A stretch of 64,000 nucleotides of DNA from Nitrosopumilus sp. (GTDB taxonomy: Archaea > Thermoproteota > Nitrososphaeria > Nitrososphaerales > Nitrosopumilaceae). A model generated the notes under the pieces. It was not told the origin of the DNA. It worked only from the letters and a program-made list of their open reading frames with translations, and searched no databases. Positions 18,845 to 55,653 of the stretch are shown in pieces (the stretch's first letter is position 1; each line of letters starts with the position of its first letter). A program made the translations under genes and the position numbers. The stretch covers positions 1,088,001 through 1,152,000 of the forward strand of contig OZ244651.1 in the NCBI GenBank assembly GCA_965218695.1, written 5' to 3'.

Positions 18845-18888
18845 GCATTCATATGCGTGTGGAACCTATAAAAGCATCGTTAATAACG

Positions 18889-18962
18889 CGGGTCTAAAGG
18901 GATTCGAACCCTTGACAGCCGGATTAAAAGTCCGGTGCGCTACCTGGCTGCGCCATAGACCC
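18889..18962 (-). tRNA. tRNA-Lys(TTT)
   Basis: GGGTCTA/TAGACCC acceptor stem, CCGGA-CTTTTAA-TCCGG anticodon arm, TTCGAAT T-loop. Confidence 0.95.
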
Positions 18963-19344: not shown

Positions 19345-20877
19345 GTATGAATTCACCTGTCCTTCCTGTCACAAAAAAATGATCATACTGATCCATATGC
19401 TGGTAATACACATCCCTGTCCATGGGGAACCCACGGCACATGAACAGGGAACAGCTGGAGAGGGAACTGGCTGAGGAAAGGAAGAAAAATGCCATGCTCG
19501 AGTCCAAGATTGAAGAGGTGCTTGCCAAGATCGAACGTCTTGAAAGGGCCTTGGGGTACAGCGAGCGCATCATGACATACTATACAAACCCCAACACGCC
19601 GCCCTCATCTGAATCCCTGGAATGGAAGGCCCAGAAGAGGGAGCGGGCAAAAAAACAGGAAAAGGGAGACAAAGCCAAGCGCGGGGGAAGAGATGGACAC
19701 GTGGGGGCGTCGCGCCCCCGCGACCCGGAAAGGACCGTATCCCACAGGTTCGGGCGCAGGAAGTCGGGCAGGAGACGGGTGCCGGTACTCCCGGAATGCG
19801 GGTGCGGCGGCGGCCGGATGGCGATTGGCAGTCCGCGCGTGCGGGACATCACGGACATCATGGTGACTGCGTGCGAGACGCGGCACCGCGTGGAGACTGC
19901 AATATGCGGCTCATGCGGCCGCAGGGAAGATGCCCCAAACGACCTGCCGCGGCGGGGCAACTTCGGCAAGGGACTGGTCGGGCTCGTCTCAGAACTGCGC
20001 GCGGCACGGGTGCCGCTCAAGGGAATCTCGGTCGCGGTGCGCTCCATAACGGACATTGAGCTTGCAGGATCCACTGTCAACAACATCATGGCGCGCGTCG
20101 GGGACGCCTCGGGCCACGAGGCAGGCAGGATCCTCGGGGAAGTGGAGGCTTCTGACTGTGCCGGGTTTGACGAGACCAGCTGGCGAAACGACGGCCAGAG
20201 GGTGCACGCAAACGTGGCACAGTCGGGCAAAAATATCGCAATAAACATCAGCCAGAGCAGGGCCACGCTCATGCTCGATGCCATGGACAAATTTGACGGG
20301 GTGGCGATAACTGACGGGTACAACGGGTATGACAGGTTTGACAAGGGCGGCATGCACCAGTCGTGCTGGGCGCACGACCTCCGGCAGACAAGACACCTGG
20401 CAGAAAAATACTGTGCCGTGCCTCCCAAGACCAAACGCGTCCGGCGGCGGCGGCAGCTCCACGAGGACCACAAGTGGGTGTTTGAGAGGGCAAAACTGCT
20501 GGCCGCGCAGGAGGCGCACTCGCTACAGCTGCGGCATACGATGAACCGCACCATGCAGGACGTGCTTGACCGGTACCGCGATGCCGGTGGTGGTAACGAT
20601 GACGACATGCAAAAGGTGCTGGACAAGCTCGAGAGGCACCTGCACCGCATGTTTGCGTTCCTGGAGCATCCCGGCGTCGAGCCTACAAACAACGCCAGCG
20701 AGAGGGCGCTGCGCTACCTGGTGGTGTTCCGCAAGATAAGCGGGCAGACCAAGGGTGGGCCCAAGTCCATGAAGCGTCTTGCAGATTTTGTTACATGCGT
20801 CCTCACGTGGAGGGCACATGGCAAGAGCGTGGCCGAAGAAGTTGGTCGACTGATATAAGGGGCAGGTGAACTCATAC
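19345..20877 (+). mobile_element. IS66-family element
   Basis: TIR GTATGAATTCACCTG / CAGGTGAACTCATAC; 8-bp TSD GAACACGT. Confidence 0.95.
19422..20858 (+). CDS. IS66 transposase
   Basis: NTPPS, zinc-ribbon cysteines, FDETSW, TDG, QSCWAH, TNNASERALR. Confidence 0.95.
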   Translation: MGNPRHMNREQLERELAEERKKNAMLESKIEEVLAKIERLERALGYSERIMTYYTNPNTPPSSESLEWKAQKRERAKKQEKGDKAKRGGRDGHVGASRPRDPERTVSHRFGRRKSGRRRVPVLPECGCGGGRMAIGSPRVRDITDIMVTACETRHRVETAICGSCGRREDAPNDLPRRGNFGKGLVGLVSELRAARVPLKGISVAVRSITDIELAGSTVNNIMARVGDASGHEAGRILGEVEASDCAGFDETSWRNDGQRVHANVAQSGKNIAINISQSRATLMLDAMDKFDGVAITDGYNGYDRFDKGGMHQSCWAHDLRQTRHLAEKYCAVPPKTKRVRRRRQLHEDHKWVFERAKLLAAQEAHSLQLRHTMNRTMQDVLDRYRDAGGGNDDDMQKVLDKLERHLHRMFAFLEHPGVEPTNNASERALRYLVVFRKISGQTKGGPKSMKRLADFVTCVLTWRAHGKSVAEEVGRLI

Positions 20878-20924
20878 GAACACGTCAGATATAAACATAA
20901 ATCCGATAATGTGCTATCTGTTGC

Positions 20925-21188
20925 ATGAGCAGGTATTTGAGCAGGGCCATAAAGGGAGCCGGCAAGGCACTGGAGAAAGGGGTCAAGGCTACAGACAACC
21001 TGATTGACGGGCCAGTTACCAACGGCGTGAATAAGACAACGAATAAGGTGTCCAAGAACATTGCAGGCAACATGCCATCCCCGGAACGGCAGCAAGATGA
21101 TCCGTTGACCGTGTTACAGAGGAGATACGCCAACGGAGAGATAACCCGGGAAGAATTCCTAGAGATGAAGAAGGATCTCGGACTCTGA
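20925..21188 (+). CDS. SHOCT-domain protein
   Basis: C-terminal DPLTVLQRRYANGEITREEFLEMKKDL. Confidence 0.85.
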   Translation: MSRYLSRAIKGAGKALEKGVKATDNLIDGPVTNGVNKTTNKVSKNIAGNMPSPERQQDDPLTVLQRRYANGEITREEFLEMKKDLGL

Positions 21189-21316
21189 ATGTTATCGCTG
21201 TGGCAGGTTCTGTGTAATCTTCGGGAGGTAGAATCGGACTGGTCAACAAAAACGATTTAAGGCAGTCTATGAACAGACTCAATAGCATCCCTAAATTTTC
21301 AGATCCATACTACAAG

Positions 21317-21574
21317 CTACTCGTTATTTTCTGGATGTCTCACAGATCGCCTTCCAACGAAGAACAGCACGAACATCAGTCCCAACATGAAAACAAATAT
21401 TCCCATCATTGGAGCGATCGCGTACTCTGCAATATTCCTCTGTAAGACGTTTGTGCTTCCTGAATATAGTACGGCAAACATAATCAAAGACCAAAATAGA
21501 CCAACTAACAGAACAGATACGCTGATTCCCATTCCTAGCTTACTTTTGATTCCCACGATTCTTCCGTACTTCAT
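21317..21574 (-). CDS. Small two-TM membrane protein (transposon cargo)
   Basis: Two hydrophobic segments in 85 aa. Confidence 0.7.
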   Translation of the reverse strand: MKYGRIVGIKSKLGMGISVSVLLVGLFWSLIMFAVLYSGSTNVLQRNIAEYAIAPMMGIFVFMLGLMFVLFFVGRRSVRHPENNE

Positions 21575-21683
21575 GTAGTAATAAGTTCTGTGATTGTGGG
21601 TTCTGTCGAGTTAATGAGAGCCAATCTAGAAATTTTATCGAGTTATAGAAACCTACTTTACAAAACTTAAACACTCTATAAAG

Positions 21684-21766
21684 TCCCGGGAGAGGGACTT
21701 GAACCCTCACATGCGGCGAGCATATTCATGTTTAAGATGAACGCCATACCATTAGGCTACCCCGGG
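21684..21766 (-). tRNA. tRNA-Leu(TAA), atypical, transposon-borne
   Basis: CCCGGGG/TCCCGGG acceptor plus A73; GCC-TAATGGTAT-GGC D-arm; TTCAT-CTTAAAC-ATGAA anticodon arm; long variable arm; GAGGG-TTCAAGT-CCCTC T-arm. Confidence 0.85.
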
Positions 21767-21860
21767 TTAAAACGGTTAAATAGTCTATTAGTATAAGATT
21801 GTATGGTTACGATTAAGGTGATGCGGCGAGCATACAGTAACCCTTTTTTCTCTCATATAA

Positions 21861-22985
21861 TTACACAAAGTTTCCTTTGTATAGACTCGCATTCTGAATC
21901 AACGTAATCCACTTGTTCCTACCATCCACTTCAATGAGTGAAGCTTCTGCCGGAGTCATGCCGTCAATCCCAGAGTGCTTCTTGGTAAAGTTATAGTAGA
22001 TTCTCATCCCATCCAAAACTGCCGTATCTATCTTCTTCAAACCTCTAAACACCTTCTCACGATCCCTGATTTCACCATTCAGACGCTCCATCTTGTTATT
22101 ATTGTCGCGATCCCTTTTCCCTGCAAGATGTATGTGCCTTACGTGGTTTGTTCCCTTACCAAAGACCTTCTTGCTTGACTTCATATAAGCCGGGAGTCCG
22201 TCAGTGATGAAATTCTTTGGAGCCTTCCCTGCCTGCCTTTTCGTCATGGATAGAAGAGAATCAGCGTTATGTTGGAACTTATTGTCTGCCAAATCTGAAG
22301 CCAACCAGTATCGCGTATCATCATCCATACTAGCAAACAGGTAGCATTGAGTACCGTTGATCTTTACCCACACTTCATCAGCACGAAACCAATCCCCCAC
22401 TCTTGGAACTACTCCATTGAGGTATTGTGCAGTCATACGGGAATAGTCTGAAACCCAATTGTATATCGTCTTGAATGAGACATCAATCCCCATCATCTCG
22501 TAGTGGTCGGCGATGTCCCTTACGCTCATTCCAGTATAGTACATTTGAAGTGCGCCAGTAATAATTAATTCATCAAACTGTCTCTTTTCGAACCCAAAGT
22601 TTGCGGTAAATTTCTTTTGACAGTCTTTACATCTGTACATTTGAACCCTACCTTTCTTGGTATTCCTCGTGCCTTCTTTCCTTATTCTGCCAGAGTCACA
22701 ATACTTGCAGACTGGTATCTTGGATCGTTCAATGATTCGGACTGGCTCATTTGCATAACACTTCTTCTGTTTAATGAGTTCGAGTGTAATGTGGATGTGT
22801 TTGCAGTCTGCGTTTCTGGTAGAATGGTCTGGACATGAACATATCAGACCATTTTTAGTTTCCTTGACCTCATAGAAATTTTCAGGATCGGTTTGAGATC
22901 GGATTTTGAATGTACCTATTCCTATTTGAGATCCGAATCCCGGCGATTCCATCATCTGTTTCGATCTCTCTTTTCTTTGGCTCAT
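21861..22985 (-). CDS. IS6-family DDE transposase with N-terminal SWIM and zinc-ribbon domains
   Basis: CSCPDH...CKHI, CKYC...CKDC, TIYNWV HTH, ADEVWV, ITDG, NNKMERLN. Confidence 0.92.
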   Translation of the reverse strand: MSQRKERSKQMMESPGFGSQIGIGTFKIRSQTDPENFYEVKETKNGLICSCPDHSTRNADCKHIHITLELIKQKKCYANEPVRIIERSKIPVCKYCDSGRIRKEGTRNTKKGRVQMYRCKDCQKKFTANFGFEKRQFDELIITGALQMYYTGMSVRDIADHYEMMGIDVSFKTIYNWVSDYSRMTAQYLNGVVPRVGDWFRADEVWVKINGTQCYLFASMDDDTRYWLASDLADNKFQHNADSLLSMTKRQAGKAPKNFITDGLPAYMKSSKKVFGKGTNHVRHIHLAGKRDRDNNNKMERLNGEIRDREKVFRGLKKIDTAVLDGMRIYYNFTKKHSGIDGMTPAEASLIEVDGRNKWITLIQNASLYKGNFV

Positions 22986-22990
22986 GTTAT

Positions 22991-23110
22991 AGGTTATATG
23001 TTAGGTTATATAAGTGTTAGGTTATTATTCAGGTTATCTTAAAGGTTATCATTCATTCCATTAGGTTAACCAATAGGTTATTATAGTGGTAGGGTTATAA
23101 AATAGGTTAT
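22991..23110. promoter_or_regulatory. Divergent promoter with nine (A/G)GGTTA(T) direct repeats
   Basis: Boxes at 22991, 23003, 23019, 23031, 23043, 23063, 23075, 23092, 23104. Confidence 0.75.
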
Positions 23111-23285
23111 GAGTGAACAAACTAATTTGGTTTTTGCCAATCAAAGCGGTTCTCTTCGAACTACCGTACCATCCCATATTATAAAACAGTTCAAGTTGAA
23201 GAATGGGGACAAGATGGAATGGGAATTGGTGGTAGAGAATAACGCTTTGAAGATTGTACTTAAACCAGTAAAGAAAGAATCTTGA
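23109..23285 (+). CDS. AbrB/MazE/SpoVT-family DNA-binding protein (58 aa, below ORF-track cutoff)
   Basis: MSEQTNLVFANQSGSLRTTVPSHIIKQFKLKNGDKMEWEL... matches the SLRTTVP..I...L..GD...W pattern. Confidence 0.85.
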   Translation: MSEQTNLVFANQSGSLRTTVPSHIIKQFKLKNGDKMEWELVVENNALKIVLKPVKKES

Positions 23286-23421
23286 TTCATGGGGATTATA
23301 TACGTGGATTACATTAACACAAAGGATGCCATGTACGTACTTTTGGATGTTTTACCACTTAAGAATACATAGAATTGCAAAACGATAGGATTTTATGGAG
23401 ATATGAATAGACATCAACGAT

Positions 23422-23787
23422 ATGGGCATGATAAAGAAGATCGTGATTATCATAATAACAATCAATGTGATAGGAGCTGTCATATTCCTCGGTTTGTTGT
23501 TTGGAATGGAAGATAGATCCGATCAAATTACAGACGTGGGAACCAGTATCTTGAACAATAAGATAGCCATGTGGGAATTGCAGTTAGAAGAATGTGAGAC
23601 AATACAGACCCAGACAGAATTTACAGAATTCCAAACCGACACGCAAGAGCTTGAACGCTTGACTGATGCTGATGTTGGAGATCATCCCACAAGCATGACA
23701 CTTGAGATACTTGACAAGTTGAGTAAATCTCAAACAGACGTGTATTCATGCACAGCCTCCAAACAAGTACAATTTGGGATTCCATGA
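23422..23787 (+). CDS. Membrane-anchored hypothetical protein (transposon cargo)
   Basis: N-terminal TM segment, acidic helical remainder with two Cys. Confidence 0.7.
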   Translation: MGMIKKIVIIIITINVIGAVIFLGLLFGMEDRSDQITDVGTSILNNKIAMWELQLEECETIQTQTEFTEFQTDTQELERLTDADVGDHPTSMTLEILDKLSKSQTDVYSCTASKQVQFGIP

Positions 23788-24023
23788 TTCCAAACTGCTA
23801 ATTTTTTGATTCAATCCAATAAAAAATAGGGATTGCGGTATAAAGTCGGGCTTGTGAAGTGATTTTGATAACTAGATTTTACCTCCCGAAGATTACACAG
23901 AACCCTGTGGCATGTGGTTTTTTGACTAGCCCGCACAAATGTACTGCATGCAAGTTGAGCCGTCTACTGCAAGGCAGCCGTGACAGAAACTTTTAATCAG
24001 GTAATGTGGCCCAGATTATTTGT

Positions 24024-24101
24024 GCCCTTGTAGTATAGCCCGGTCTAGAATTCGGCCCTGTCACGGCTGAGACGCGTGTTCAAATCCCGCCGAGGGCGCC
24101 A
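24024..24101 (+). tRNA. tRNA-Asp(GTC)
   Basis: GCCCTTG/CGAGGGC acceptor, CTGTCAC anticodon loop, encoded CCA. Confidence 0.95.
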
Positions 24102-31017: not shown

Positions 31018-32565
31018 ATGCATTCAGAAAAGATTGATGAGTATCTCAGACACAAGAATACTGCGCTCCAGGGCGGCGGCCAGGACAGGATCAGGGCCCA
31101 GCACGAGAAGGGCAAGCTGACTGCCCGCGAAAGAATCGATCTGCTGCTTGACGAGGGCACGTTTACAGAAGTCGACCCGATGACCACCCATCACTACCAC
31201 GAGTATGACATGCAGAAGAAAAAGTTCTTCACCGACGGCGTTGTGGGCGGGTACGGAGACATCGGCGGAAGGCAGGTGTTTGTATTTGCATATGACTTTA
31301 CGGTTCTTGGCGGAACGCTTAGTCATATGGGCGCCAAAAAGATTACCAAACTTATGGATCATGCACTCAGGACAGGATGCCCAATAATCGGCATAATGGA
31401 TTCCGGCGGCGCACGAATCCAGGAAGGCATCATGAGCCTTGACGGGTTTGCAGACATATTCTATCACAACCAGCTTGCCTCCGGGGTGGTCCCGCAGATT
31501 ACTGCAAGCATTGGGCCCTCGGCCGGGGGTGCCGTATACTCGCCTGCCATGACTGACTTTGTGGTGATGGTGCAAAAGGCCGGAACGATGTTTGTCACCG
31601 GACCTGATGTGGTCAAGACGGTGCTTGGCGAGGAGATCTCCTTTGACGACCTTGGCGGGGCCATGACGCACGGCTCAAAGAGCGGCGTTGCGCACTTTGT
31701 TGCAGAAAACGAGTACGAATGCATGGACTACATCAAGAAACTCGTCTCATTTCTCCCGCAAAACAACGCCGAGGCGCCGCCCCGGACGGGCACCGACGAT
31801 GATCCCAACAGGATGGACCACAACCTTGCCAACATAATTCCTGAAAACCCGCTGCAGCCGTATGACATGAAGGAGATCATCAACTCGATAGTAGACGACC
31901 ACGACTTTTTCGAGGTACACGAGATGTTTGCCCCCAACATCGTAGTGGGGTATGGCAGGCTTGACGGAAGGGTGGTCGGAATAATTGCAAACCAGCCGAT
32001 GCATCTTGCAGGCTCCCTTGACATAGACTCCTCAAACAAGGCATCCCGGTTCATCAGGTTCTGTGACGCCTTCAACATACCGATAATCACGCTAGTCGAC
32101 ACTCCCGGATACATGCCCGGCTCCAACCAGGAGCACAACGGGATCATCCGGCACGGCAGCAAGCTGCTGTATGCGTACTGCGAGGCCACCGTTCCCCGCA
32201 TCACGCTGGTCGTCGGAAAGGCCTACGGCGGTGCGTACATCGCCATGGGCAGCAAGAACCTCAGAACCGACATAAACTATGCTTGGCCCACTGCAAGATG
32301 CGCCGTTCTGGGAGGGGAGGCTGCAGTCAAGATAATGTACAGAAAAGAGCTAAACGCAGCGGAGAATCCCGAATCCCTCAAGGGGCGTCTGATTGACGAG
32401 TTTGCAGAAAAGTTTGAGAACCCGTACGTTGCAGCATCGCATGGAACTGTGGACAACGTAATTGATCCTGCCGAGACCAGACCGATGCTCATCAAGGCCC
32501 TCAGAATGCTTGCAAACAAGCGCGAAAAACAGCTTCCGCGAAAGCACGGGAACATAAATCTGTGA
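31018..32565 (+). CDS. pccB: Acetyl/propionyl-CoA carboxylase, carboxyltransferase subunit
   Basis: LTARERI, DSGGARIQEG, VDTPG, KAYGGAY, KHGNINL. Confidence 0.95.
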   Translation: MHSEKIDEYLRHKNTALQGGGQDRIRAQHEKGKLTARERIDLLLDEGTFTEVDPMTTHHYHEYDMQKKKFFTDGVVGGYGDIGGRQVFVFAYDFTVLGGTLSHMGAKKITKLMDHALRTGCPIIGIMDSGGARIQEGIMSLDGFADIFYHNQLASGVVPQITASIGPSAGGAVYSPAMTDFVVMVQKAGTMFVTGPDVVKTVLGEEISFDDLGGAMTHGSKSGVAHFVAENEYECMDYIKKLVSFLPQNNAEAPPRTGTDDDPNRMDHNLANIIPENPLQPYDMKEIINSIVDDHDFFEVHEMFAPNIVVGYGRLDGRVVGIIANQPMHLAGSLDIDSSNKASRFIRFCDAFNIPIITLVDTPGYMPGSNQEHNGIIRHGSKLLYAYCEATVPRITLVVGKAYGGAYIAMGSKNLRTDINYAWPTARCAVLGGEAAVKIMYRKELNAAENPESLKGRLIDEFAEKFENPYVAASHGTVDNVIDPAETRPMLIKALRMLANKREKQLPRKHGNINL

Positions 32566-32571
32566 TGAATC

Positions 32572-34059
32572 ATGATTGAGAAGGTACTTATCGCAAACAG
32601 GGGGGAGATTGCGCTACGCGTCATCAGGACGTGCAAGGCTCTTGGCATCAAGACCGTGGCAGTGTACTCTGACGAGGATCGCAACTCGCTTCACGTAAAG
32701 CAGGCAAGCGAGGCATACCACATAGGGCCTGCAGCCCCTGCAAAGTCCTACCTGAACCAGCAGAAGATCCTCGAGGTGATCCTCTCGTCCGGGGCAGACG
32801 CGATCCATCCGGGATACGGCTTTCTGTCCGAGAATGACGACTTTGCAAGGCTGTGCGAGGGGAACAACATCAACTTTATCGGCCCGTCTGCTGACTCTAT
32901 GAATTTGTGCGGCGACAAGATGCGGTGCAAGGCAGCCATGCTCAAGGCCGATGTGCCGACAGTCCCGGGAAGCCCGGACCTGGTAGGTGACGCAGAGGAG
33001 GCAGCAGACATTGCAAACAAGATAGGATATCCCGTCCTTCTAAAGTCCGTGTACGGCGGAGGGGGCCGCGGAATCAGACTCGCGCGCAACGACGAGGAGC
33101 TGCGCCAGGGATACGATTCTGTCACAGGCGAGTCCATCGCGGCTGTGGGCAAGTCGGCAATACTTGTAGAAAAGTTCCTTGAAAAGACCAGGCACATAGA
33201 GTACCAGATGGCAAGGGACACCCACGGGAACACCGTCCACATCTTTGAGCGGGAGTGCTCCATCCAGAGGAGGAACCAGAAGCTGATCGAGCAGACCCCG
33301 TCCCCAATAGTAGATGATGAGACAAGGGAGCGCATAGGCCAGATAGTGTGCAATGCAGCCGATGCTGTAGACTATACCAATCTGGGTACCGCCGAGTTTC
33401 TGCGGGCAGACAACGGAGAGTTTTACTTTATAGAGATCAATGCTAGGCTGCAAGTGGAGCACCCGATCACCGAGTTTGTCTCCGGACTGGATTTAGTCAA
33501 GCTGCAGCTGGACATTGCAAACGGGGAGCCCATACCCTTCAAGCAGAGCGATCTCAAGATGAACGGCTATGCCATAGAGTGCAGAATCAATGCCGAGGAC
33601 ACGTTCCTTGAGTTTGCCCCTTCAACCGGGCCGGTACCAGACGTGACCATCCCTGCAGGACCAGGGGTAAGGTGCGATACCTACCTCTATCCCGGATGCA
33701 CGGTATCACCGTTTTATGATTCCCTGATGGCCAAGCTTGTCACGTGGGGGCAGACATTTGAGGAGTCAAGATCCCGGATGCTTGTGGCCCTCAACGACTT
33801 TTACGTTCAGGGCGTGGAGACATCGATTCCGCTCTACAAGACCATCATGGAATCTGAAGAGTACAAAAACGGCGATCTCTCTACTGACTTTCTCCAGAGG
33901 TACGGCATGATAGACAGGCTCTCCAAGGACATCAAAAAGGAGCGGGATGCAAAGAGCCAAGCAGCCCTTGCAGCTGCAATAATTCATTCTGAATACTTTA
34001 AGAGCCGGGTGCGCCAGGATTCGGATACAAGATCAAACTGGAGAAACAGGCTGGACTGA
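32572..34059 (+). CDS. accC: Biotin carboxylase subunit
   Basis: ANRGEIA, HPGYGFLSEN, GGGGRG, RLQVEH. Confidence 0.97.
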   Translation: MIEKVLIANRGEIALRVIRTCKALGIKTVAVYSDEDRNSLHVKQASEAYHIGPAAPAKSYLNQQKILEVILSSGADAIHPGYGFLSENDDFARLCEGNNINFIGPSADSMNLCGDKMRCKAAMLKADVPTVPGSPDLVGDAEEAADIANKIGYPVLLKSVYGGGGRGIRLARNDEELRQGYDSVTGESIAAVGKSAILVEKFLEKTRHIEYQMARDTHGNTVHIFERECSIQRRNQKLIEQTPSPIVDDETRERIGQIVCNAADAVDYTNLGTAEFLRADNGEFYFIEINARLQVEHPITEFVSGLDLVKLQLDIANGEPIPFKQSDLKMNGYAIECRINAEDTFLEFAPSTGPVPDVTIPAGPGVRCDTYLYPGCTVSPFYDSLMAKLVTWGQTFEESRSRMLVALNDFYVQGVETSIPLYKTIMESEEYKNGDLSTDFLQRYGMIDRLSKDIKKERDAKSQAALAAAIIHSEYFKSRVRQDSDTRSNWRNRLD

Positions 34060-55559: not shown

Positions 55560-55653
55560 TGGTGCTCCAGCCGGGACTTTCATCGAATGATTTTGAACCC
55601 GGGATCACTGCCTTGAAAGGGCAGTATGCTTGACCGGTCTACACCACTGGAAC
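55560..55653 (-). tRNA. tRNA-Glu(TTC) with ~15-nt intron in the T-loop
   Basis: GTTCCAG/CTGGAGC acceptor, CTTTCAA loop, T-loop TTCAA[AATCATTCGATGAAA]GT, encoded CCA. Confidence 0.9.

Follow-up and report, generated by a model that had tools for sequence, protein, structure and literature searches.

Background

Elements of the IS6/IS26 family are among the best-studied simple insertion sequences (IS) and are seen as single-gene units; the review of the family describes single-gene elements of 0.7–0.9 kb with ends of 15–20 bp (PMC7986276). In the available text of this review, ISDsp3 is the only named member with a passenger gene, the word tRNA is absent, and the tree is without Nitrosopumilaceae, the home of the clade described below (PMC7986276). 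Here we describe an IS6-like transposon that carries a tRNA gene with the Leu anticodon UAA, at positions 21206–23904 of a 64,000-nucleotide stretch of a Nitrosopumilus sp. genome (assembly GCA_965218695.1, contig OZ244651.1, positions 1,088,001 to 1,152,000 of the forward strand). We refer to the whole stretch as the window; in our numbering of genomes and contigs it is G000:C1:1088001-1152000. An archaeal branch with a regulator and cargo differs from the single-gene picture of the family.

The element shares with the IS6/IS26 family the IS240-type DDE domain and the 8-bp target duplication, inverted ends that open with GG and continue with a CTGT motif and, by a rule taken from a figure legend, a basic residue seven positions after the catalytic glutamate (here E300 and R307); the N-terminal zinc-finger extension is shared with clade h of the family (all from the available text of PMC7986276). 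It differs in its length of 2.7 kb, its 30-nt ends, the divergent regulator gene, the tRNA gene and the further open reading frames (ORFs). The IS of the same host phylum have been surveyed, and in the text of that survey, taken without its supplementary tables, thaumarchaeal IS are abundant, DDE families included, and typically have one or two genes, with tRNA genes appearing as integration targets of other elements and not as IS cargo (Krupovic et al. 2019, PMC6563490). The available text of a 2026 survey of archaeal IS contains neither the term 'tRNA' nor the term 'passenger'. Literature searches gave no account of an IS6-like element with a tRNA as cargo, although supplementary tables may list thaumarchaeal IS6 elements. 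The IS6 kind itself is known; what is new here is an IS6-like element with a regulator and with cargo that includes a tRNA.

Phages, plasmids and integrative elements also carry tRNA genes, which have been proposed to compensate for differences in codon use or to evade defences that target tRNAs. The element resembles these carriers in having an extra tRNA on mobile DNA with a codon usage unlike the host's; they are large replicons or viruses, whereas the single tRNA described here travels on a DDE transposon of 2.7 kb. A second group to compare are the bacterial allo-tRNAs, described as having 8/4 or 9/3 acceptor/T stems, with UAU as the commonest non-Ser anticodon and Leu and Arg prominent; some insert Ser at other codons in Escherichia coli, and in the available text their function is unclear (Mukai et al. 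2017, PMC5389517). Their long variable arm, Ser-like character and many non-Ser anticodons (PMC5389517) recur in the tRNAs of relatives of our element. The tRNAs of the window and its relatives, in contrast, have a 7/5 layout, are archaeal and lie inside defined transposons, and the window tRNA has A73 and not the Ser-type G73.

An intact IS6-like transposon with an empty site in a congener

The element is intact, was recently inserted and is not an artefact. It forms an AT-rich unit of 2,699 bp, present as one full copy in the 2.63-Mb host genome (52.8% GC), with a GC content of 0.34–0.45 within the element against 0.50–0.68 in the flanks. Its 30-nt terminal inverted repeats both begin with GGTTCTGT and match at 29 of 30 positions. 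An 18-position pattern of these ends matched only the two element ends in the window, where 0.02 matches were expected, and none of 100 shuffled sequences reached two. On the outside, both ends are abutted by the exact 8-bp CTGTGGCA, the target-site duplication. The repeat search, the end-pattern scan and the GC profile bore out the boundaries proposed in the initial annotation, namely 30-bp inverted repeats and an exact 8-bp duplication around an AT-rich unit of this length. An empty site was sought in related genomes, and in a congener (G002) the flanks are contiguous at a single near-identical target, CTGTAACA, with neither the element nor the tRNA there.

Both junctions are spanned without differences by contigs of two public runs, and no joint skips the element in the four runs compared; the runs that cross the junctions may come from the source sample, so their support is not independent. 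Loose ends of public-run contigs at 21225 and 23885 belong to other sequences sharing the end repeat only. A look-up of public runs for the element listed no RNA run. Elsewhere in the host genome only partial pieces of related transposase genes are present (69–79% identical). The insertion site lies between a SHOCT-domain gene and a tRNA-Asp gene. The features of the element, in window coordinates, are the following.

21198–21205, no strand: left copy of the target-site duplication, CTGTGGCA; the empty site of the congener has one related CTGTAACA
21206–21235, plus strand: left terminal inverted repeat, 30 nt, starting with GGTTCTGT; 97% complementary to the right repeat, with an end motif found also in relatives
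21317–21574, minus strand: ORF of 85 amino acids with two hydrophobic segments; gene status uncertain
21599–21623, plus strand: internal end-like sequence starting with GGTTCTGT
21683–21766, minus strand: intron-less long-variable-arm tRNA, anticodon UAA, C1-G72, A73 (ARAGORN, Rfam and reading of the sequence)
21821–21834, minus strand: exact 14-nt second copy of the variable-arm hairpin of the tRNA, between the transposase stop and the tRNA
21861–22985, minus strand: transposase, 374 amino acids, with N-terminal CxC..CxH, a CxxC..CxxC zinc ribbon and an IS6/IS240-type DDE domain (D203, D262, E300, R307)
22992–23110, plus strand: GGTTAT repeated eight times, at a spacing of mostly 12 nt, within the divergent promoter region; putative operators for the AbrB-type protein
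23109–23285, plus strand: protein of 58 amino acids with an AbrB/SpoVT/MazE fold (PF04014; our family F10), divergent from the transposase
23422–23787, plus strand: orphan ORF of 121 amino acids with one N-terminal hydrophobic segment (ORF call, hydropathy and homologue search)
23875–23904, minus strand: right terminal inverted repeat, pairing with the left one (18-position pattern)
23905–23912, no strand: right copy of the target-site duplication (direct repeat and empty-site comparison)

The transposase matched the DDE domain DDE_Tnp_IS240 (PF13610) over residues 200–325 with 51 bits (cut-off 27). Its best NCBIfam match was transpos_IS6 (NF033587), over profile positions 1–202 of 202, with 116 bits against an equivalog cut-off of 125; because this score is under the cut-off, we call the protein IS6-like, a divergent relative. 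An alignment of 24 homologues shows no variation at D203, D262, E300 and R307 or in the two metal-binding motifs of the N-terminus, including C49, C51, C61 and H63 of the CxC...CxH motif. The protein had been annotated initially as a SWIM, zinc-ribbon and DDE transposase, of which the IS6/IS240 DDE domain and the zinc motifs stand, whereas the SWIM part comes down to the CxC...CxH motif, with no Pfam match to a SWIM domain even at E ≤ 10. A profile of the 24 homologues had no match among Protein Data Bank chains at E ≤ 1. Of 4,884 candidate sequences, 3,764 are homologues at E ≤ 1e-3; the best one besides the protein itself is 79% identical, and those with a name are 'IS6 family transposase' of Nitrosopumilus.

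A cargo tRNA beside a native tRNA-Leu(UAA) with two introns

ARAGORN called the element tRNA as tRNA-Leu(taa), and the Rfam tRNA model scored it at 57.6 bits (gathering threshold 29; host tRNAs range from 29.9 to 72.2). Its cloverleaf has only two non-standard pairs, with an acceptor stem of 7 bp, a T stem of 5 bp and a variable arm of 16 nt. A TATA-like stretch lies about 23–30 nt upstream and the 3′ flank is T-rich, so that both calls and the upstream sequence agree with the complete tRNA-Leu(UAA) gene and TATA-like box of the initial annotation. The 14-nt second copy of the variable-arm hairpin (original at 21711–21724) is 55 nt upstream of the tRNA gene, inside a larger hairpin with a 6-bp stem.

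In standard scans of the host genome (ARAGORN with 41 genes, rising to 69 calls when introns were permitted; Rfam with 46 matches), the sole tRNA with a UAA anticodon was that of the element, which taken alone would have told against the initial proposal. All five host Leu tRNA genes, however, share a 27-nt block of variable arm plus T arm (at most four changes) that the element tRNA is without, and a fuzzy search for this block revealed the fifth site, a native tRNA-Leu(UAA) of 121 nt at G000:C1:113885-114005. Two introns interrupt it, one in the D-arm (21 nt) and one at 37/38 (15 nt), and ARAGORN calls it tRNA-Leu(taa) once it is spliced in silico. Among 26 genomes of the genus, 21 keep this gene at full length, introns included, with 91–100% identity. 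Standard annotation would thus list the transposon tRNA as the only Leu(UAA) gene, the host's real gene being missed by both ARAGORN and Rfam. The element tRNA (window 21675–21840) had no DNA match at E ≤ 1e-6 in 400 other genomes of the order, its exact 23-mer was absent from the genomes of 185,579 species, and its gapped pattern had no match in viral contigs.

The element tRNA is cargo, foreign in type, and a second UAA-anticodon gene beside the host's two-intron copy. That it might be the host's only Leu(UAA) gene and be present at the empty site, the outcome that the initial annotation had named as fatal to its proposal, was rejected, with the conserved native gene found and the empty site without a tRNA. 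We have high confidence that the element has this anatomy, is mobile and carries the tRNA as cargo.

The element tRNA differs from native tRNA-Leu in its short D-loop, its variable arm and A37 instead of G37. Its first pairs C1-G72, C2-G71 and C3-G70, together with A73, are the acceptor end of the intron-bearing tRNA-Tyr of the host, which is the only other host tRNA truly starting with C. A73 with a long variable arm fits the archaeal leucyl-tRNA synthetase (LeuRS) identity from work on Haloferax, and the element tRNA has both; C1-G72 with A73 fits the tyrosyl-tRNA synthetase (TyrRS) by a rule from other archaea.

Related transposons and their RNA genes

Relatives of the transposase are encoded at 104 genome loci (given here as L with a number), of which 80 were fetched, and 40 metagenome loci were added. 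The end motif is conserved among the fetched genome loci. Paired GGTTCTGT ends with a perfect 8/8 duplication delimit 20 relatives of 1,855–5,424 bp, and one further locus has a 7/8 duplication; a loose end-motif scan (8-mer, at most one mismatch) gave many chance matches in AT-rich DNA and was disregarded. In nearly all bounded relatives a small ORF is divergent from the transposase. It belongs to the AbrB-type family in five elements, including that of the window, and the others have unrelated small ORFs and other repeats. The cargo is variable, with N6/N4 and EcoRI-type DNA methyltransferases, a GmrSD and HNH nuclease, and Eco57I/MmeI-type enzymes. By these comparisons the window element belongs to an apparently undescribed Nitrosopumilaceae clade of IS6-like, normally cargo-bearing transposons. 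The initial premise that IS6 elements are single-gene units of about 0.8 kb fails for this clade, where 1.9–5.4 kb with cargo is normal.

ARAGORN, together with a covariance model trained on the matches, detected long-variable-arm tRNA genes of 85–88 nt in 10 of the 80 genome loci. Eight are at most 150 nt from the transposase gene (L008, L009, L010, L012, L028, L057, L055 and L061) and two abut another end repeat (L039 and L059). Three of the 20 elements with perfect duplications contain one (L009, L012 and L057), and homologous elements with tRNA cargo, which the initial annotation had proposed to look for, thus exist. The positions vary: some of the tRNAs directly precede the transposase promoter and share its strand, and others lie downstream in either orientation.

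Four IS-rich Nitrosopumilus genomes (G038–G041), chosen because they held tRNA-bearing loci, were scanned whole, which gave 32 native Ser/Leu genes and 21 extra long-arm tRNAs, 2–9 for each genome, with non-Ser/non-Leu or duplicated Leu anticodons. A transposase match was nearby for 13 of the 21 extras against one of the 32 native genes, leaving eight extras without. Among 12 extras found independently of the transposase, four had a transposase match within 2.5 kb, that of L156 being a 26-residue fragment only. Two of these four, L154 and L213, adjoin transposases only 33–42% identical to that of the window.

In a comparison of 15 extra tRNAs every one had G1-C72 and G73, the state of native tRNA-Ser, whereas native tRNA-Leu has A73; the similarity of the tRNA bodies was not discriminating (best Ser 0.64–0.88, best Leu 0.64–0.79), and only the discriminator and first pair are informative. 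The extras of G038–G041 given as L148, L149, L152, L154, L156, L158, L160, L161, L201, L211, L213 and L217 have G73, except L213 with A73. The 10 aligned tRNAs of relatives have the standard 7-bp acceptor and 5-bp T stem, and a compensatory change (G2-C71 to A2-U71) separates those of L008 and L158. The window tRNA, with A73 and C1-G72, is exceptional among the element-associated tRNAs.

A second class of putative RNA genes, resembling C/D-box sRNAs, was detected just upstream of the transposase. A C box and a D box with a terminal stem of at least 4 bp were found 42–55 nt before the transposase ATG in 8 of the 56 loci with a complete N-terminus (L039:3893-3948, L014:3893-3951, L017, L019, L023, L026, L031 and L057). 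The strict C-12-D′-C′-12-D layout of C/D-box guides occurs in L039 and L014, that is, twice in 120 loci against 0–1 in each of 10 shuffled sets, and the Rfam model sR1 scored these two at 36.9 and 26.2 bits, under its gathering threshold of 45. For the two 12-nt guides of L039, a target search gave, besides the gene itself, only matches with one mismatch, no commoner than with a reversed control. No C/D-like RNA was detected in the window's element by the loose box-and-stem test, and Rfam finds the tRNA only.

In a transposase tree of 46 rows, from which nine broken-ORF loci were left out (L057, L017 and L031 among them), the window falls in a group of 13 rows with a support of 90/88, not starred and drawn open. 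Six rows of this group have a tRNA and two a C/D-like RNA, against three C/D-like RNAs and no tRNA in the other 33 rows.

That this IS6-like clade of ammonia-oxidising archaea systematically mobilises stable-RNA genes, namely identity-mismatched long-arm tRNAs and C/D-box guides, is a speculative generalisation that we consider unlikely. If true, transposons would spread modifiers of host translation (decoding and RNA methylation) or would use RNAs for their own control, and the window element would be one instance, with a Tyr-like acceptor on a Leu-anticodon tRNA. The small RNA genes riding this clade are a more interesting lead than the single element, a lead that rests on five carrier genomes. 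Functional RNAs would mean that transposons of 2–5 kb can move (mis-)decoding capacity between genomes of very different base composition. This bears on the expression of AT-rich mobile DNA in GC-richer hosts, on the origin of odd long-variable-arm tRNAs in metagenomes and on annotation practice.

Regulator gene, repeat array and small ORFs

The divergent AbrB-like gene of the initial annotation was recovered, its product matching PF04014 (MazE/AbrB/SpoVT) with 31.6 bits against a cut-off of 24.7. The NCBIfam AbrB and antitoxin models match this protein only below their cut-offs, and no toxin partner gene was found within the element. The GGTTAT array takes up the 120-nt gap that separates the AbrB-type gene from the transposase and accounts for 8 of the 17 plus-strand GGTTAT of the window. 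The same protein family is present in L013, L039, L044 and L049; L049 has the same repeat at the same place, seen there as ATAACCT, and L044 has a repeat of its own. From this anatomy we infer that the AbrB-type protein may repress the divergent promoters through the array, and the regulator gene with its phased repeats, as putative operators, fits the self-regulation that had been proposed.

Of the two small membrane genes annotated initially, the ORFs and their hydrophobic segments are present, but recognised homologues are not, and their status as genes is uncertain. The ORF of 85 amino acids had a weak holin-like Pfam match (E 0.005, under the cut-off) and no protein-atlas match at 0.9 or above, and no homologue of the ORF of 121 amino acids was found among 5.8 billion proteins, with near lengths searched. 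The internal end-like sequence at 21599 has the exact 8-mer and, by eye, agrees with the left end of L021 at 20 of 25 positions. It may be the remnant of a second left end, in which case the outermost 393 bp, including the ORF of 85 amino acids, could have been added later when a new end was recruited; the tRNA is within both the inner and the outer bounds.

Possible roles of the element-borne tRNA

As a whole, the best explanation that we can offer is a bounded cargo transposon under AbrB-type control with a decoder tRNA, and we put it forward tentatively, rating it somewhat below an even chance. In this explanation the AbrB-type protein would control the transposase by binding the phased array of eight GGTTAT repeats in the promoter region that both genes share, and the tRNA would be expressed from its own TATA-like promoter, become charged and serve as an extra intron-less UUA/UUG decoder, helping the translation of AT-rich mobile genes in a GC-richer host. 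The part of it that concerns the tRNA, expression from its own TATA-like box and a supplement to UUA/UUG decoding, is suggested by gene structure and codon counts, and we regard it as the likeliest function of the tRNA, though less likely than not. Among host Leu codons TTA makes up 2.5% and TTG 10.1%, together 12.6% (1,126 long ORFs), whereas in the element they are 4 and 17, that is 21 of 46. In-frame TTA codons had been noted initially in the transposase motif DELII and in both small ORFs, and they are present there, with one in the transposase, two in the ORF of 85 amino acids and one in that of 121.

Several observations weigh against a decoder. TTA occurs just four times among the codons of the element, a conserved Leu(UAA) gene is already available in the host, and the two ORFs that would gain most from a decoder have no homologues and may not be genes. 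Leu charging of the element tRNA is uncertain because of its tRNA-Tyr-like acceptor end and its differences from native tRNA-Leu. The anticodons of the relatives' tRNAs are CAG, UAU, UAA, AUC, ACG, UUC and UCU in the genome loci, with CCU and GAU added by the whole-genome scan of the carriers; because of these nine anticodons and the Ser-like G73 frame, UUA supply cannot explain the recurrent association with tRNAs. The tRNA-positive loci are drawn from five genomes only, and tRNA cargo was found in none of the 40 metagenome loci, many of them on short contigs. Lastly, the C/D-like RNAs occupy the same transposase-adjacent slot as the tRNAs of other relatives, which hints at an RNA-level role unrelated to decoding. 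The anticodon diversity, the Ser-like frames, the Tyr-like acceptor and the C/D-like RNAs argue that the family-level reason for RNA cargo is another one. What remains of the UUA decoder for a GC-rich host proposed initially is the tRNA cargo and an element richer in UUA/UUG; the relatives' anticodons, the acceptor end and a host that has its own gene and, at 52.8% GC, is no more than moderately GC-rich speak against it.

The same slots favour a reading in which the RNA gene, stable in its product, strongly transcribed and processed, works for the transposon and not in decoding. It would be a promoter, terminator, insulator or processing module that fixes the expression of the transposase regardless of insertion context. 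The RNA genes within 150 nt of the transposase occupy two fixed slots, one of them 42–55 nt upstream of the ATG and before a conserved TATA-like box, with a tRNA in L008, L009, L010 and L012 and the C/D-like RNAs in their eight loci, and the other between the transposase stop and the end, as in the window, L028, L057, L152 and L154. One slot is thus common to two unrelated RNA classes, and the window's group in the tree has an RNA gene in 8 of its 13 rows, although this group, with its 90/88 support, is drawn open. Simple co-transcription is disfavoured by the orientations: the tRNA shares the strand of the transposase in the window, L055, L152 and L154 but not in L028, L057 and L061. In small elements, moreover, any cargo comes to lie near the transposase, and the relatives' tRNAs keep all tertiary-contact nucleotides, which is beyond the needs of a processing signal. 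On this evidence we consider a service to the element unlikely.

A role of the tRNA as an identity-mismatched molecule or a decoy is less likely again. It could cause regulated mistranslation through a synthetase blind to the anticodon, with charging by the seryl-tRNA synthetase for the G73 relatives and perhaps by TyrRS or LeuRS for the window tRNA, or it could be a nuclease-resistant substitute or decoy against tRNA-cleaving toxins in the genetic conflicts that such carriers of defence genes enter. The Ser-type G73 in 15 of 15 extra tRNAs with non-Ser anticodons, the joining of a tRNA-Tyr acceptor end to a Leu anticodon in the window, and the restriction-modification and GmrSD cargo of relatives are in line with this, as are the bacterial allo-tRNAs, which in the available text similarly have many non-Ser anticodons and lie near toxin-antitoxin or transposon genes (PMC5389517). 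Yet no tRNA-cleaving toxin gene was found in or beside the window element, A73 with a long variable arm is what a normal Leu identity calls for, mistranslation would come at a cost for the host, and the synthetase identity rules used here are those of other archaea and not thaumarchaeal ones.

Similarly improbable, in our view, is a neutral hitch-hiker, a tRNA captured through a new distal end or by recombination between elements, decaying or functionless in the host. The internal end-like sequence at 21599 suggests that ends are re-recruited, the cargo of relatives is highly variable, the window tRNA is without a close relative in the genomes and viral contigs searched, and some of the relatives' copies have stem mismatches (L028 against L160). 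A tRNA of this kind would not be expected to have the intact cloverleaf and high Rfam score of the window's, nor to recur as cargo at other positions and in other clades (L154 and L213, with their distant transposases), and the paired change between L008 and L158 is compensatory. The last possibility, an essential host Leu(UAA) gene that merely lies between inverted repeats, has in its favour only that standard ARAGORN and Rfam runs show no other UAA-anticodon tRNA, and is extremely improbable given the native two-intron gene in 21 of 26 genomes, the congener's empty site without the tRNA and the absence of its sequence from all 400 genomes of the order.

Neighbouring genes and other tRNA-like calls

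To the left of the element, an ORF of 87 amino acids with a C-terminal SHOCT domain (20925–21188, plus strand) stops 10 nt before the insertion site, and to its right tRNA-Asp(GUC) is located at 24024–24101, the element being 119 nt upstream. An IS66-family transposase gene is present at 19422–20858 on the plus strand (PF03050, 101 bits), and the stretch 20700–20887, which overlaps its 3′ end, recurs at eight other sites of the genome with 95–100% identity. Because this IS66-associated stretch recurs, we regard the insertion region as a cluster of mobile elements. The gene for tRNA-Lys(UUU) is present in two copies, one at window 18888–18962 (minus strand) and the other at G000:C2:4049-4122; this second contig of 21 kb also has a piece related to the transposase of the element (C2:18285-18388).

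With introns allowed, ARAGORN gave 24 'tRNA-Tyr' calls in G000:C1 (for example 31984–32860) of 871–877 nt, each with an 'intron' of 777–783 nt. These are evidently a repeated element of about 0.88 kb with ends that mimic tRNA halves, and the calls are most likely an artefact of its inverted ends. In the window, a weak match to the tRNA model (25.7 bits) at 55562–55653 on the minus strand looks like a tRNA that has the anticodon UUC and a T-loop enlarged by about 17 inserted nt; it may be the host tRNA-Glu(UUC), which the standard scans left unreported.

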